DNA of 64,000 nt from Nitrospirota bacterium. GTDB taxonomy: Bacteria > Nitrospirota > UBA9217. Both the position numbers and the translations under genes were made by a program. The stretch lies in the NCBI GenBank assembly GCA_963737155.1, contig CAVTRN010000002.1, positions 1,856,001 to 1,920,000 of the forward strand, written 5' to 3'. Of the stretch, positions 57,710 to 63,547 are shown one piece after another (position 1 is the first letter of the stretch; each line of letters opens with the position of its first letter). The notes under the pieces were generated by a model. That model was not told the origin of the DNA and ran no database searches. It saw only the letters and a list, made by a program, of their open reading frames with translations.

Positions 57710-59890
57710 ATGCTTCGGATCAATCGATTATTTGTCCCGGTATTACTTGTTTTGATGGTCTTTCTATTCGCAGCTGGCTGCACAAAGAGCAGCAGTAGCA
57801 ACACGGCAAGCGACGCGAACAATACGAACAACACGAACAACCCAACGAACAATTCGGTATCACAGGTTAGCGGGAACGTATCAGCCCCCAGCGGCATCGT
57901 TGCCATGAACCAAGAGACTGGCTGGCGGCGGTTCCTGGCTTGGCTATTGCCTAGTGAGGCCATAGCCTTATCTCCTGGAATATCGTCTGTCGGAAGCGGT
58001 GTAACCGTGAACCTCATCCAAATTGACAACACAGGCACTCAGGTTGGTTCTGTCCTTTCCACCACAACAACCGATTCTTCTGGTAATTATGTTCTTCAGG
58101 TGCCGACAGGTTTTGTGCCAGCGATCAACTATGTGGTGAGTGCCGAGGGGACGGGCGTCACTATCCAGTCGTTTGTAACCGGCACAACGGTTAATATAGA
58201 CCCATATACCCATACCACGGTGAAGTTGATAACGGGTTCCATCTCATCCGTAAGTACTGCAACCATCACCCAAGTAACTCCATCAGACGTGGCAGCCGTA
58301 CTTGAAACCGTGCTTGATTTTAGTACTTCCGTAACGACAACTGCACTAAGCGTTAGCTCGCTGGTGACAAACCTCCAGAATGTTGTCAATAATTCAGCAG
58401 ATTTCAGCCCTATCATTACAAGCCTTTCAAGTACTATCGGAATTAGCGGATCAGTAACCGATGATTCGAACAATCCTGTTCCTGGTATCTTGATTATGGT
58501 CGAGACATTCAATGACAGACTAATCCAGGCAATGGTCAGAACAGACTCCTTGGGTAATTATTCCGTCCGTGTCCCGGCAGGTGATTATGTAGTCGGTGCC
58601 GTCAACGATACCCCGACCAGTACTGTTGCCAGCACCTGGTGGACAAGCAACGGCGGCACCCCTGGGTTGTGGACCGCTGAAAAAATAACGGTTGGCAGCG
58701 AACAAATCACAAGGAATTTTACGCTGTCCGAGGGAGGGAGAATCAGTGGTACCGTCCTATCAGCAGATGGCAGCTCGCCGCTCCAAGGAATACATGTTGT
58801 TTTATCTGATTACGTCGATGGTTCTACATTAATGTATGTAATCACAAAGAGCGATGGCTCTTACAATATCAACGTGGCCCCGGGAGATTACTATATTTTT
58901 GCAAGAAACCTGACGCTACTCCCGTATGCCACTCAAATGTATAGCAGTACTCTGGGCAGCGCCGCATTGAACAAAACTCAGGCAGATAAAATCACGGCAA
59001 CGGAAGGGTCAATTATTGCTGCAAATATGAGTCTTGTAAGCGGCGTAAATTTAAGTGGACTGGTAACTGATCCAGGAACAGGTCCGGTCCCAGGTAGAAA
59101 CATGCGGCTTTCTGATTCAAATGATGTTTATGCGGGTGCATGGCGGACGAACAACGATGGAACATACCAGGTCTGGTTGCAGCCTGGAAAATACACGATC
59201 AGGACCTATGGTCAGATTACCACATTTGACCTTTCGACAAGCCAAAGCATAACATTTAATGCTGCGGTGGGCGAATATACCGGTTATCTGCATGATACCG
59301 ACGGAAACCCAGTAGGGCAGGCTTTTATATATGCCTATAATGTATTGGAAAAATCTCCCGTGATCATTGGTACAATGACCTATGAAGCATCCAGCGGGGA
59401 TGGCAGTTTTAAAATATGGACCCCCCTTGGCAATAGCTCTATATTCCTGTTCAGGAATGACGATGATCTGCCAGACGCTACTTTTGTATATACCAATGCC
59501 ACAAATACCATCGTTCCGCTCATCTCTGGCGCAACTTTTACATCCACATCATCACCTACCAATCTAGGAACTATAACAATGCCTGCAGGAGTATTTGTGC
59601 GGGGAGTTGTAACTGATAGCAATAACAACCCGCGCGCAGGCATCTCTATCCAGGTCCGTGTCGGCGGAACGTCAGGTGCTTATCACTTATCAAATGTTCA
59701 AACCATGAGTGATGGCTCATATGCCATGAATCTGCCCGCAGGTGCAACTATGGCGCGTATTTGTGCTTACTTAACAAATATGAGTTGTCCAGGCGTCAGT
59801 TCTGCATCAACCGGCACCTATTATAATTATTCGGATAATGTAAATATGGGTACTGTAGGAACCACAACAACACTTAATTTTCAGTTTTAA
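57710..59890 (+). CDS. Large Ser/Thr-rich lipoprotein with repeated carboxypeptidase-regulatory-like (CnaB-type) beta domains
   Basis: Lipobox FAAG-C; repeats ISGxVxD...PxxG...TxxDGxY. Confidence 0.78.
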   Translation: MLRINRLFVPVLLVLMVFLFAAGCTKSSSSNTASDANNTNNTNNPTNNSVSQVSGNVSAPSGIVAMNQETGWRRFLAWLLPSEAIALSPGISSVGSGVTVNLIQIDNTGTQVGSVLSTTTTDSSGNYVLQVPTGFVPAINYVVSAEGTGVTIQSFVTGTTVNIDPYTHTTVKLITGSISSVSTATITQVTPSDVAAVLETVLDFSTSVTTTALSVSSLVTNLQNVVNNSADFSPIITSLSSTIGISGSVTDDSNNPVPGILIMVETFNDRLIQAMVRTDSLGNYSVRVPAGDYVVGAVNDTPTSTVASTWWTSNGGTPGLWTAEKITVGSEQITRNFTLSEGGRISGTVLSADGSSPLQGIHVVLSDYVDGSTLMYVITKSDGSYNINVAPGDYYIFARNLTLLPYATQMYSSTLGSAALNKTQADKITATEGSIIAANMSLVSGVNLSGLVTDPGTGPVPGRNMRLSDSNDVYAGAWRTNNDGTYQVWLQPGKYTIRTYGQITTFDLSTSQSITFNAAVGEYTGYLHDTDGNPVGQAFIYAYNVLEKSPVIIGTMTYEASSGDGSFKIWTPLGNSSIFLFRNDDDLPDATFVYTNATNTIVPLISGATFTSTSSPTNLGTITMPAGVFVRGVVTDSNNNPRAGISIQVRVGGTSGAYHLSNVQTMSDGSYAMNLPAGATMARICAYLTNMSCPGVSSASTGTYYNYSDNVNMGTVGTTTTLNFQF

Positions 59891-59903
59891 TAGTAAAATA
59901 AAA

Positions 59904-59933
59904 AGACTCGGCCATGAATAACTGGTCGGGTCT
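59904..59933 (+). terminator. Probable terminator hairpin
   Basis: AGACTCGGCCA / TGGTCGGGTCT stem after the stop codon. Confidence 0.55.
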
Positions 59934-60103
59934 CGTGTTGCAATATGATTAGGCTTCTAGGCGTTTTGATCCAGGTCATGCTTTCCGTGATCCAGCCAAA
60001 ACCGAAAGCGAAGGGGGCAAGGAAAATAATCAGGCGTGCAGCGCTCATCACCGTTTTAAGTTGTTGAAATAATTAAGTCCGGATGTTACCGTCGTTGACG
60101 TTG

Positions 60104-60256
60104 TGTTAATTTACCCATAAGATTGCCGCAGCTGGAAGCATAAGATAGCCGGAAAATGGCCTTTTAAGTACTTCTTTTTTCTTATTTTTATCCTATTGTG
60201 GAACCATAAGATTGCCGAAAGTGCAAATTGGAACCATAAGCCTGCCGAAAGTGCAA
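60104..60256 (+). repeat. IS21-like terminal remnant with four binding-site repeats
   Basis: Starts TGTT; four copies related to GGAACCATAAGATTGCCG, the last two in a 30-nt tandem. Confidence 0.55.
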
Positions 60257-60695
60257 TGCAGACTCCGATGGTGCAATATGTGCAGATTCCGGAAGACAGC
60301 AGACGTTCCGATTGAATCTTTCCACCTGATCCCATCCATTCCTTCCACCCAATCCGGTAAATCTACCAGTCATTCCGGCCGTCCTTCCAGAGAGAATAGC
60401 CTCTGTAGGTGATCACGTGATGTTGTTTGTATCGCGAATTTTATCATATAGCTTCATCTTTTAGAAATTCCACCAACTTCCTGGTTTATTGTTGTCAAGT
60501 ATTTTTGTAATAAAATAGCGTTTACTTGCTTTATGGTTTTGCTCTTGGTCACGAAAAGTATACCAGTAAGAGATATTCCTCCGAAGTGATGGTTTAAGAG
60601 GTCCTCAGTCCTTCGGGGCAAAAATTTTCTCTCACAAATGCCCCAGGATCGGTTTCCCACTGGCAGTCCATATCCTGATATCCCCCTAAACATTA

Positions 60696-60863
60696 ATCTT
60701 GCGCGGCACCTTGTCCAACCCTGGTAATTAGAGGGTCTCAAGAGAGCCCTGACCTTGCTTCATAGGGACAAAGGTGCAAGCGGGGATTATTGACTCTGTA
60801 CTGGAAGGTCGGTTTGGCCGCCTTAGTGGAAGGAGAGATATTTCCCCGCCTACACGCCAAGAT
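60696..60863 (-). ncRNA. Putative bridge/seek RNA of the IS110 element
   Basis: Closing stem enclosing two stem-loops, each with a large internal loop; G-U pairs work only on the minus strand. Confidence 0.6.
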
Positions 60864-60869
60864 TTTGAG

Positions 60870-62126
60870 TTATGCAGCCTCCTTGAACTGAAATGATGTC
60901 CTGGAGTAATCAAAAACACTATTATCTCGCACGATGGCAAATATGATCCGGAGAAGCTTGCGTGCGACAGCGATCAAGGCCTTGGTCCTTAGCATGCCCC
61001 GATCAAGGTATCTCTGATATTGATGTTCCATAACGCAACCCTGACGAACCATATTCATCGCGGCAAAATATAAGAGTTTCCGCATCAGGGGACGACCACG
61101 CTTGGAAATACGACGAGTCCCCCGGTATTTGCCGGAGCTGACTTCAAATAGATCCAGACCGGCGAGTTTCATAATTTCCCCGATGGTGCTGTACCTCCGA
61201 AAGTCGCCCACTTCACCGATGAGGCCAGCAGCGGTAACCTCACCTATTCCCTTGATCGAAAGAAGAGAATTGCTGTAGGGAATCTGTTTAAGATGATGAC
61301 TCATTCCCTTTTCCAGCCCTTCCGTAAACTTTTCAGAGGCTTCCATGGCAGCAAGTATCGCTTGGGTTTCGAGGAGGATGCTCGCTTGGCCCTCGACCAC
61401 GCCTATGGACGCTTCCGCCGCTTCATAGAGCGCTTTGGCACGGTCTTCATTCAGTCTTCCCCGGCTCACCTTTCTCATTGTTCCGCTCAGATTATCAAGA
61501 CCGTATGCAACAAGATGCTGAGGTGTCGGGTAGTGCTTCAATAAGTATTGTGCGGTTGCAGTCTTTACATTTTTTACCACTTGGAGAAACTCGGGGAAGA
61601 TGATCGCGATTAAGCTCTGGAGTTGGTTCACCAATGCCGTATGACGCTCCGTGCTCCTTTCCCTAGCCTGAGTAAGCCTTCGAAGTTCAGCAGCAGACCC
61701 TTCCGGGATCACGACCGTAAGGGCACGGCCAAGCTCTATGATATCTGCAATGATCTTCGGGTCTTTCTGATCGGTTTTGTTCGGAGAATTACCCTGGAGC
61801 TCCTTGACTCTTTTGGTATGCATGGGATTCACTTGCACAAGTCGCACACCCCGTGCTTTCATGAAATGTACGAGAGCCTCTCCATACGGGCCGGTGGACT
61901 CATACCCAAAAACAATCTCATCAAGGCGATGAATCTCCTTTGCCCTTGATATCCGAGCCCAGAACTCCCAGCAGCCGGCTCCGTTATTTGGAAAGGAGAA
62001 GGGCTTCACGTCAGTCCCATCTGGGCAGCGCCAGTATCCAAAATGCTTGTCTTTGCTGATGTCTACCGTCACGATAAGGGCCTTCCCATTGACTATCTGT
62101 TGTTTTTTTGTTTTAATGATCTTCAA
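60870..62126 (-). CDS. IS110-family transposase/recombinase (DEDD + Tnp20)
   Basis: VDISK, YESTG, NKTDQKDP, SIKGIGEVTA, GL...SSG...ISKRG. Confidence 0.95.
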   Translation of the reverse strand: MKIIKTKKQQIVNGKALIVTVDISKDKHFGYWRCPDGTDVKPFSFPNNGAGCWEFWARISRAKEIHRLDEIVFGYESTGPYGEALVHFMKARGVRLVQVNPMHTKRVKELQGNSPNKTDQKDPKIIADIIELGRALTVVIPEGSAAELRRLTQARERSTERHTALVNQLQSLIAIIFPEFLQVVKNVKTATAQYLLKHYPTPQHLVAYGLDNLSGTMRKVSRGRLNEDRAKALYEAAEASIGVVEGQASILLETQAILAAMEASEKFTEGLEKGMSHHLKQIPYSNSLLSIKGIGEVTAAGLIGEVGDFRRYSTIGEIMKLAGLDLFEVSSGKYRGTRRISKRGRPLMRKLLYFAAMNMVRQGCVMEHQYQRYLDRGMLRTKALIAVARKLLRIIFAIVRDNSVFDYSRTSFQFKEAA

Positions 62127-62395
62127 GGCTATACCCCTTTCTCTGATTTATTTACCAACTCGCCAGCTGGTTTTAAATCAAGAAAGAGTATAGCCTTCTA
62201 ACTAAACTTTTTCTACTCTTCTACAATATAGCAAGCTGAAGCATTTGGAGTTGTCAATTTCAGCAACAATCAAGACTTCATCCCGAATTTATTGATGCAA
62301 AACTTGTAATACCCACTCTCTACTCACAGTTATTTACAACGCGATTTTCGGACTTCATGACTGAAAAGATACCGATAAAAGAATACTATTGAGGA

Positions 62396-63547
62396 CTATA
62401 CCGTGGTTGATTCCTCGGTGATCTCGTGGACTGCGCATTTAGGAAGACTGAAACCAAAAATGCTTCCTTGACCGGGGCTACTGACAACCCACATCTCGCC
62501 CCCGTGCGCCTCGACGATATTTTTTGATATTGTCAGGCCGAGACCAGAACCCTTCTGGTCGTGAGAAACTCGGTAGTATGCATCGAAGAGGAAAGGAAGC
62601 TTATCAGCCGAGATTCCCTGCCCAGAGTCCTGAACCTCGACACGCGATTGCCGGTCCGTTTCGAGAGTCTTCACGACGACCAGACCACCCGCCCCGGTGT
62701 ACTTCACAGCGTTGTTCAATAGGTTCGTGACGACCCTGTTGACCATGACGATGTCGACATCGAGTGCGGGCATGCATTCGCAGGGCTCGTAGCGGATCAT
62801 AATGTTTTTCTTTTCCGCCTGGACCATAGCAAAATCTATCTGTTTCCGGATTAGCGCATCCAGATCACAGGGGGCAGTGTTCGGCTTGTATCCCTTCGCC
62901 TTCATCCGGGCATGAGCAAGGAAACTTGTCACCATTTGATCTATTGTCAGGAGACCATCAAATATACGTTCGAGCCGACCACGCGCATCATCGGTTTTTC
63001 CGGATAGAATCCGCTCGATGAATCCTATTGCGGGCACAAGAATGTTCTTGATGTCATGAGCGAACATGGAAAGCATGTTTTCCCGCTCTCGTTCAAGTTT
63101 TCCTATTTCGGCGACCTTGTTTTTCAACTCCATGCGGATTTTCTGCCGTTCGATGGCATAGCGAATCGCTTTAACGAACAGTTCACTGGAAAGCTCACCT
63201 TTGACTAAATAGTCCTGTGCACCCCGATTTACCGCCCGGAGAGCCATTTCTTCGTCGTCAAGCCCAGTGAGTACAATTATGGGTATGTCCGGAAACGCAG
63301 TATGTATCTTTATGAAAGCATCCAACCCACAACTGTCGGGCAATCCTAAGTCGGACAGGATGACATCATAGCGTTTCTGAGCGAGTCGCTCGATTCCCGT
63401 CGACAGTCGTTCCGCTCCGTCGATGTCAAACCGGACACCTTTCTTTCTCCCCAGGATTCGTCTGATTAGATCAGCATCATCTCGGTTGTCTTCCAAAAGA
63501 AAAACTTTTATTTCATCATGCGTGGCGATCATCAAGTCCGACTGCAT
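62396..63547 (-). CDS. Hybrid receiver-histidine kinase (REC-HisKA-HATPase)
   Basis: LLEDNRDD, SDLGLPD, GAQDYLVK; FAHDIKN; NLLNNAVKYT, DSGQG, GSGLGL. Confidence 0.93.
   Translation of the reverse strand: MQSDLMIATHDEIKVFLLEDNRDDADLIRRILGRKKGVRFDIDGAERLSTGIERLAQKRYDVILSDLGLPDSCGLDAFIKIHTAFPDIPIIVLTGLDDEEMALRAVNRGAQDYLVKGELSSELFVKAIRYAIERQKIRMELKNKVAEIGKLERERENMLSMFAHDIKNILVPAIGFIERILSGKTDDARGRLERIFDGLLTIDQMVTSFLAHARMKAKGYKPNTAPCDLDALIRKQIDFAMVQAEKKNIMIRYEPCECMPALDVDIVMVNRVVTNLLNNAVKYTGAGGLVVVKTLETDRQSRVEVQDSGQGISADKLPFLFDAYYRVSHDQKGSGLGLTISKNIVEAHGGEMWVVSSPGQGSIFGFSLPKCAVHEITEESTTV

Follow-up and report, generated by a model that had tools for sequence, protein, structure and literature searches.

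The stretch of DNA analysed here (the window) comprises 64,000 nt of a Nitrospirota bacterium of the UBA9217 lineage (assembly GCA_963737155.1, contig CAVTRN010000002.1, positions 1,856,001 to 1,920,000). On its minus strand, from 62237 to 60481, lies a candidate RNA-guided insertion sequence (IS) of the IS110 family. Positions given below are those of the window unless a contig is named. The element opens with a left end (LE) of 109 nt (62127..62235), followed by the transposase gene tnp (60870..62126; 418 aa, TTG start), a two-armed RNA of 168 nt (60696..60863), a lineage-specific middle part of the right end (RE; 60506..60695) and a conserved RE terminus (60483..60505) reading ..ACTTGACAACAATAAACC. 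Counted from the stop codon, RE is 387 nt long versus 109 nt for LE. The dinucleotide AG, read as the core of recombination, stands at the left junction (62236..62237) and at the right one (60481..60482).

The tnp product carries a DEDD RuvC-like domain and a Transposase_20 domain. Pfam gives PF01548 for residues 20-178 (E 8.6e-26) and then PF02371 for residues 287-370 (E 1.9e-22), and the NCBIfam model NF033542, 'IS110 family RNA-guided transposase', is matched with 216.7 bits at a cut-off of 140. Alignment to the IS621 chain 8wt6_A of the PDB, the numbering of which is offset by 2, places E76, D119, D122 and S331-G332 opposite E60, D102, D105 and S241-G242 of IS621, where PMC11208158 names the catalytic residues. 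This protein alignment is weak (E 1.6e-13) and consists of two stretches. A weak match of residues 227-376 to the NCBIfam model of the TIGR-Tas RNA-guided endonuclease was also seen (46.3 bits, below the cut-off of 100).

The RNA starts 6 nt after the TAA stop codon of tnp, at the distance given in the original prediction, a model's reading of the letters of the window. It is built from a closing stem (60863-60855 with 60705-60696), arm 1 (60854-60843 with 60786-60775, cap AAGGCGGCC/ACCGACCTT) and arm 2 (60774-60766 with 60716-60709, cap AGGGCTC/GAGACCCT), each arm holding an internal loop. The fold has a minimum free energy of -63.1 kcal/mol (z = -3.2), a stability that 1 of 200 shuffles reached. 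A scan of public genomes for homologues gave 80 loci with transposases 49-91% identical, and the RNA lies directly 3' of tnp in every homologue with enough downstream sequence (about 80 transposase genes). From 79 loci, 53 non-redundant RNAs were drawn (at least 185 nt downstream, at least 4 differences); L026 was dropped because its contig holds no stop codon, and L025 and L063 for too little downstream sequence. The RNA alignment (A1) contained the window and 49 of the 53, the near-duplicates L022, L037, L061 and L081 being left out. In these 50 distinct sequences 27 of the 36 consensus pairs show compensatory changes (RNAalifold); a lack of stem covariation in homologues had been named in the original prediction as refuting it. 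Pairing is kept in 97.5% of the cells versus 86.3% in column shuffles (0/500) and 32-47% with the partners slid by 1-3 columns. The closing-stem duplex has an energy of -6.73 kcal/mol in own pairs versus -5.07 kcal/mol in cross pairs (43 sequences, 0/5000 permutations). This stem is weak in the most distant relatives and is misaligned at the ends of the alignment. The stems and loops lie at the coordinates first given for them, and the same fold is conserved with covariation in the family.

G-U pairs, from which the strand had been deduced, are frequent (e.g. UG in 35 of the 50 rows at columns 131/178), and their abundance fits transcription of the tnp-sense strand, as judged from the alignment. 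The RNA model matched only the copies A, B and C described below and one remnant in this genome (nhmmer), and LE gave no match to it. A search of 59800-62600 with Rfam 15 (cmscan, E up to 1) returned only a chance match to bxd_2 on the other strand inside tnp, with 17.4 bits versus a gathering score of 80. Judged by the comparison of homologues, the two-armed fold very probably represents a guide (bridge/seek) RNA encoded in an IS110-family element.

The ends and the AG cores were placed at 62235/60483 and 62237-62236/60482-60481 because the copies within the genome, the multi-copy families of other genomes and the AG and TTGACN patterns across the loci all define them. Besides the copy in the window (copy A), the genome holds copy B (C2:1954696-1956466); over about 62243-60475 its identity to copy A is 97%, and its flanks beyond are unrelated. 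Copy C (C1:837901-839064) is a truncated and interrupted relic without the first ~880 nt and with an insertion of ~215 nt. Copies A, B and C share the terminus ..AAACCAGGAAGTT / ..CTTGACAACAATAAACCAGGAAGTT and diverge right after it; RE closes with ..TTGACAACAATAAACC at 60483. Upstream of 62238..62243 copies A and B are dissimilar, but TGCT(T/A)C is common to both. In copy A this left target flank is TGCTTC (62238..62243); the right target flank GAAGTT (60475..60480) is shared by all three copies. Both belong to the target, the left one lying outside the element. The target consensus reads TGCT(T/A)C-AG-GAAGTT, and only AG is common to the two junctions. The alignment of genomic copies, suggested at the outset as a way to fix the ends, also supplied the left junction that had been missed then (62237/62235).

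LE begins with CTTGCTATATT, and AG stands immediately 5' of it in 76 of 77 homologue loci. At RE 67 of 82 loci have the pattern TTGACN + 10 nt + AG. The same layout recurs in other genomes with multi-copy families, AG being followed by CTTGCTATATT on the left and TTGACN-N10-AG standing on the right, with family-specific flanks kept between insertions. In soil-metagenome contigs of relatives the match to the window stops at 62237, 62238 and 60481. For the genome of homologue L034, an empty site was rebuilt from the left flank, a single AG and the right flank; it occurs 85 times at up to 2 mismatches (4 perfect), and the reversed control pattern occurs once. The target of the L034-family element in that genome (G001) is a repeat present about 85 times, often as inverted pairs ~170 nt apart, which resemble the ends of a small repeated element (e.g. 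C1:215364(+)/215531(-) and C10:462446(+)/462614(-)). In the genome of the window, C1:111018(-) reads GTTTGCTCC-AG-GAAGTATGG and continues as a 95.5% paralogue of the right flank of copy A. This site, the rebuilt sites of the L034 genome and the break points of the metagenomic contigs all favour an unoccupied target with a single AG.

Because copy B has a stop at codon 32 of tnp (TGG to TGA) and copy C is truncated, copy A alone among the copies of this genome has, by its reading frame, an intact tnp. Between copies A and B 51 differences fall in 62161-61195 (~5% in the 5' two-thirds of tnp) and only 4 in 61194-60580 (<1%). This near-identity over the RNA-bearing 3' part suggests either recent conversion or strong constraint. 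A right-end remnant at C2:2089597-2089693, outside the window, is what is left of a related element (locus L005, C2:2089597-2089770) and consists of the arm 2 half of the RNA and then a degenerate right end, ..TTCACAACAATACACC-AG, and carries no transposase gene.

The internal loop of arm 1 reads the target flanks. Its 5' strand (60825..60842) contains TCTCCTTC (60836-60829) as the guide for the right target; its reverse complement is GAAGGAGA, the first 4 nt of which match GAAG of the right flank. Its 3' strand (60787..60804) contains the left-target guide with the core, CAGTAC-AG (60803-60796). Across the family, loops and flanks were compared by the longest common substring with the core left out, and without L049, L065, L082 and L087 (anchor of the 5' strand below 10 nt). 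The reverse complement of the 5' strand scored 5.58 against its own right flank versus 3.28 against those of others (31 distinct guides), and the 3' strand scored 3.95 against its own left flank versus 2.77 (38 guides); none of the 5000 permutations reached either value. Thus, covariation of loops with targets, which had been named as a check, is found on both strands. Left flank and AG are repeated in the 3' strand of L027 (GCCGCAG), L028 (GGGGGAG), L066 (TCAAAAG) and L016 (AGTTCAG), and the right flank equals the reverse complement of the 5' strand in L020 (GGTCTGTGA), L036 (GATTCAA), L056 (GGGAGGG) and L066 (ACTCTTGC). Read 5' to 3', the segment complementary to the top strand precedes the one complementary to the bottom strand. 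The CTT that follows AG on the 3' strand was also considered as a guide for the LE start and ruled out: in L076 and L077 LE starts with CGTGC and the CTT is kept.

The internal loop of arm 2 reads the joined ends of the element, ..AAACC-AG-CTTGC... On its 5' strand (60751..60765), the start of LE, CTTGC, has its reverse complement in GCAAG (60758-60754). The corresponding match to the first 5 nt of LE was found in 47 of 48 rows and includes the covarying combinations GCACG/CGTGC and GTAAG/CTTAC; the single miss, L019, has a doubtful LE anchor. On the 3' strand (60717..60731), ACC-AG (60725-60721) repeats the RE terminus ACC and the core. Here all 40 rows agree with the last 3 nt of RE plus AG (ACC in 30, ACA in 4, ATA in 3, ACT in 2 and ATC in 1). 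Since arm 1 tracks the target flanks and arm 2 tracks the element ends across the family, arm 1 is assigned the role of target-binding loop and arm 2 that of donor-binding loop on this comparative evidence.

A cis-acting mRNA element, i.e. a terminator, stabiliser or translational regulator of tnp, could also be imagined as the source of the conserved 3' structure, given that it starts 6 nt past the stop codon and that no promoter of its own was found. However, in many independent families its unpaired loop strands track the target flank and the ends of the element, which a terminator or stabiliser would not do; no T-run follows the structure either. A cis-acting role in place of guiding is thus very improbable. 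The original proposal, in which a DEDD enzyme of the IS110 family is followed downstream by a guide RNA with two loops, is backed both by the covariation of the structure and by that between loops and DNA. An RNA-guided IS110-family element from 62237 to 60481, with its target loop in arm 1 and its donor loop in arm 2, would best explain the locus as a whole, and a probability of about 0.88 is given to this reading.

The ends joined with one AG bring the -35 box TTGACA of RE (60498-60493) and the -10 box TATATT of LE (62230-62225) into the arrangement TTGACA-17-TATATT; the spacing is the same in all 62 loci having both anchors. Junction promoters have been described for ISEc11, ISEc21 and IS621 (PMC11187229 section 12; PMC11208160). 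The element would move by RNA-guided site-specific recombination. By analogy with IS621, ISEc11 and ISEc21, it would be excised as a circle with the predicted junction ..AATAAACC-AG-CTTGCTATATT.. (in the longer form ..TTGACAACAATAAACC-AG-CTTGCTATATTG..). The promoter formed by joining RE to LE would lie upstream of tnp and the RNA and, as in the same three elements, might drive both. In the target loop, the 3' strand has the sense of the left target and AG and would pair with the bottom strand; the 5' strand, which reverse-complements the right target, would pair with the top strand. Arm 2 reads the joined ends likewise: its 3' strand holds ACC-AG of RE, and its 5' strand holds CTTGC of LE as the reverse complement. 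On the same analogy, a recombinase tetramer would hold both loops, with strand exchange at the AG core, and insertion would proceed without target duplication at sites resembling TGCT(T/A)C-AG-GAAGTT.

Several points weigh against this reading. The permutation tests (0/5000) leave relatedness among the families in place. For sites A and B, paralogous sites were seen but no true empty allele. The integrated copy yielded no sigma-70-like promoter for the RNA, its only promoter-like site being the weak TAGAAA-17-TATACT in LE. The first catalytic Asp is presumed to be D22, a position that the IS621 alignment does not cover. Furthermore, the loop of copies A and B (left guide CAGTAC-AG, reverse complement of the right guide GAAGGAGA) matches their own flanks, GCTTC-AG-GAAGTTGG in copy A and GCTAC-AG-GAAGTTAT in copy B, near the core only: TACAG and GAAG in copy B (5+4 nt), T.CAG and GAAG in copy A. 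The guides of the relic copy C, GGCTAC-AG and GAAGTTGA, fit the occupied sites better (GCTACAG and GAAGTT, 7+6). Since the loop of A and B fits its flanks only by the core while the relic fits better, the intact copy A may be poorly matched to the sites occupied, or the guides may be shorter than assumed.

Copy C and the outgroup L016 both have ATTATC and AGAATC, and copies A and B have A-TATC and AGAGTC. Because copy C and L016 agree against A and B, the loop of A and B represents the derived state; by this comparison the target loop of copy A has drifted from the sites held by copies A and B. Excision of IS621 is reported, in a preprint (10.64898/2026.08.31.748434), to tolerate mismatch on the target side. 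A tolerance of the IS621 type would soften the problem of the poor fit. In this genome no target for the A/B-type loop was found at 0 or 1 mismatch, and 9 sites were found at 2 mismatches; for the copy-C-type loop there were 0, 1 and 12 sites at 0, 1 and 2 mismatches, respectively.

Eight unoccupied sites in this genome match GCTNCAGGAAGT together with the right-flank motif (e.g. C2:13092, C2:230065, C2:133325 and C1:111018). At several of them ATG, GTG or TTG follows within a few nucleotides downstream, as seen in the letters with no gene calls used. Because such start-type codons come shortly after several of these sites, the preferred target may overlap ribosome-binding sites.

The lineage-specific part of RE (60506..60695) holds a hairpin (60644-60615) and the site 60577-60561, AATATCTCTTACTGGTA, a 17-mer that occurs once in the window and lies 78 nt inside RE. 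The original prediction had taken this site for the putative element end, with guide-like matches to loop segments. The string matches themselves are real: AATATCTCT (60842-60834), CCAGTA (60804-60799) and TACCAG (60726-60721) are present as described. They are out of register, and they do not covary in copies B and C. An element end near 60561, with the loops reading AATATCTCTTACTGGTA as donor or end sequence, draws on two adjacent matches, one direct (9 nt) and one as reverse complement (6 nt). Their composite was reached by 1 in 1000 dinucleotide shuffles of the downstream 296 nt, the test being tailored to this pattern after it had been seen. Against such an end, all three genomic copies run 78 nt further, to the family-conserved terminus at 60483. 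The site reads ATATCCCT in copies B and C, and this mismatch breaks the match in copy B; copy C has the loop GGCTAC where A and B have CCAGTA, and its site is still TACTGG. Among the RNA letters that match are the ATC of GATTATC, a motif kept throughout the family at the base of arm 1, and not the guide positions; a general local alignment stays within its null. What the loops read instead are the target flanks (arm 1) and the joined ends (arm 2). An end at this site is accordingly regarded as extremely improbable.

The segment with the site is also optional, because the length of RE past the stop codon ranges from 194 to 398 nt among homologues, metagenomic contigs join 60500/60506 directly to 60705/60706 and skip ~200 nt, and in L016, the nearest foreign homologue, the sequence between ~60612 and the last 30 nt is unrelated and the site is missing. 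The absence of the whole 60506-60705 segment in relatives speaks against an end near 60561 as well. The RE tail (60700-60483) folds no better than its shuffles (z = -0.73). Its origin as a decayed duplicate of the RNA was considered and rejected, local alignment scores of 20 and 16 lying within the null (17 +/- 2.4, maximum 26).

The site might have a function of another kind, either by anti-guide pairing with the 3' strand of the target loop in a long transcript or as a DNA decoy or self-target of the rewritten A/B loop. In favour of this, the changes of that loop relative to copy C and L016 give rise to the CCAGTA and ATATCTCT matches, and CCAGTA-CAGAG..ATAATCCCCG in arm 1 can be aligned with the reverse-complemented site; the tailored test (1/1000) counts on the same side, with the reservation that it was devised after the pattern was seen. 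The match is not conserved beyond copies A and B and contains a mismatch in B, the tail shows no significant fold, and the opposite strand of the site, CCAGTA-AG-AGATATT, departs from the register of the family by 1 nt on one strand and by 7 nt on the other. A function of this kind is considered very unlikely. In a more specific form, the A/B target loop, rewritten at ~8 positions versus copy C and L016 and misfitting the occupied sites, would now be complementary on both strands to this site of 15-17 nt in the RE tail of the element itself. This would make it a self-directed anti-guide or decoy that restrains transposition, or else a guide caught while being reprogrammed by conversion templated within the element; either is considered very unlikely. 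The match of 60577-60561 to the loops is read as chance or a by-product.

A guide RNA downstream of the transposase gene is not in itself new. In the IS1111 group such RNAs are established, and some elements of the IS110 type are noted to have them as well (PMC11187229 section 6; PMC11208160 section 12); large-scale mining of bridge RNAs beside IS110 recombinases is reported in 10.64898/2026.10.21.760802. The element shares with the IS1111 group (ISEc11, ISPa11, ISKpn4; PMC11187229) a non-coding region with the guide RNA downstream of tnp, a short LE and a long RE, the formation of a promoter by end joining, and site-specific insertion without duplication. The order of the guide segments is also that of IS1111-type seekRNAs, in which the top-strand complement comes first; the IS110-type ISEc21 has the opposite order (PMC11187229 sections 9, 12). 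In contrast, the transposase has 418 aa instead of 330-350 aa, and it reads GLDLFEVSSG, with L replacing P of the motif GL-P----S(t)G (PMC11187229 section 6). Subterminal inverted repeats are 7-17 bp long in the IS1111 group. The earlier statement that no obvious ones exist here was roughly right, except for one perfect 6-bp pair, ACAATA (60492-60487) with TATTGT (62228-62223), which gives 7/9 when extended. This short repeat does not covary, because homologues with LE TATATTCC keep the same RE.

IS621 (PMC11208160, PMC11208158) likewise has target and donor internal loops with half-sites on opposite strands around a 2-nt core, and a DEDD + serine recombinase with which the catalytic E, D, D and SG align. 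Its RNA lies upstream in LE and its core is CT, whereas the present element has a downstream RNA, an AG core and the two guide strands in reversed order. The strict IS110 subgroup also has the guide RNA upstream, in a long LE, unlike the 109-nt LE of this element, which has no match to the RNA model. IS110-type elements with a 3' non-coding region (PMC11187229 section 6) share with it the long transposase (395-455 aa class) and the long non-coding region downstream. ISPpu9, another IS110-family member, carries additional dispensable RNA-coding DNA (Ssr9) between tnp and the right end, according to PMC12288879. The same source states that its circles build no junction promoter, unlike the junction rebuilt here, and there is no sign in this element of 60506-60695 being a mobile module of the Ssr9 kind or an RNA gene. 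Because the protein length and the P of the motif depart from the IS1111 group and the upstream RNA of the strict IS110 subgroup is missing, the element is filed under the broad IS110 family only. Judged by its sequence, it is a member of that family with a bridge/seek RNA and mixed subgroup traits, namely a long IS110-type enzyme and an IS1111-like 3' RNA.

Among plasmid relatives of tnp the best match is 35% identical (Cytobacillus, annotated only as IS110 family). ISBth13 is 27% identical and has a long non-coding region upstream. Partial matches from the plasmid search (rows H27-H37) align to residues 271-408 only and are guessed to be of the IS1111 type. A literature query for 'bridge RNA' with 'Nitrospir' returned one unrelated review, no other search for the clade in print having been made.

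From the point of view of genome annotation this is an ordinary case, with a single intact IS copy, a second that carries a stop codon, a truncated relic and a remnant of a right end. Its value lies in a natural bridge-RNA system of an uncultured lineage, the ends, AG core, junction promoter and both loops of which can be read from about 80 relatives. Among these relatives a single scaffold bears many different target loops, a point of possible interest to those who mine for compact RNA-guided recombinases. That a long enzyme of the IS110 type occurs together with a 3' RNA and a strand order like those of IS1111 bears on the movement of the RNA between element ends.

Two features of the surroundings were also observed. 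Upstream of the element, an open reading frame of 383 aa (62396-63547, minus strand) appears by eye to encode a receiver domain fused to a histidine kinase, and nothing was seen that ties it to the IS. Just past the right flank, the plus strand of 60110-60256 holds four copies of a 28-nt motif, TGGAACCATAAGATTGCCGAAAGTGCAA, which are 68-100% alike at spacings of 23, 66 and 30 nt; contigs of metagenomic relatives break at 60256 and 60257.

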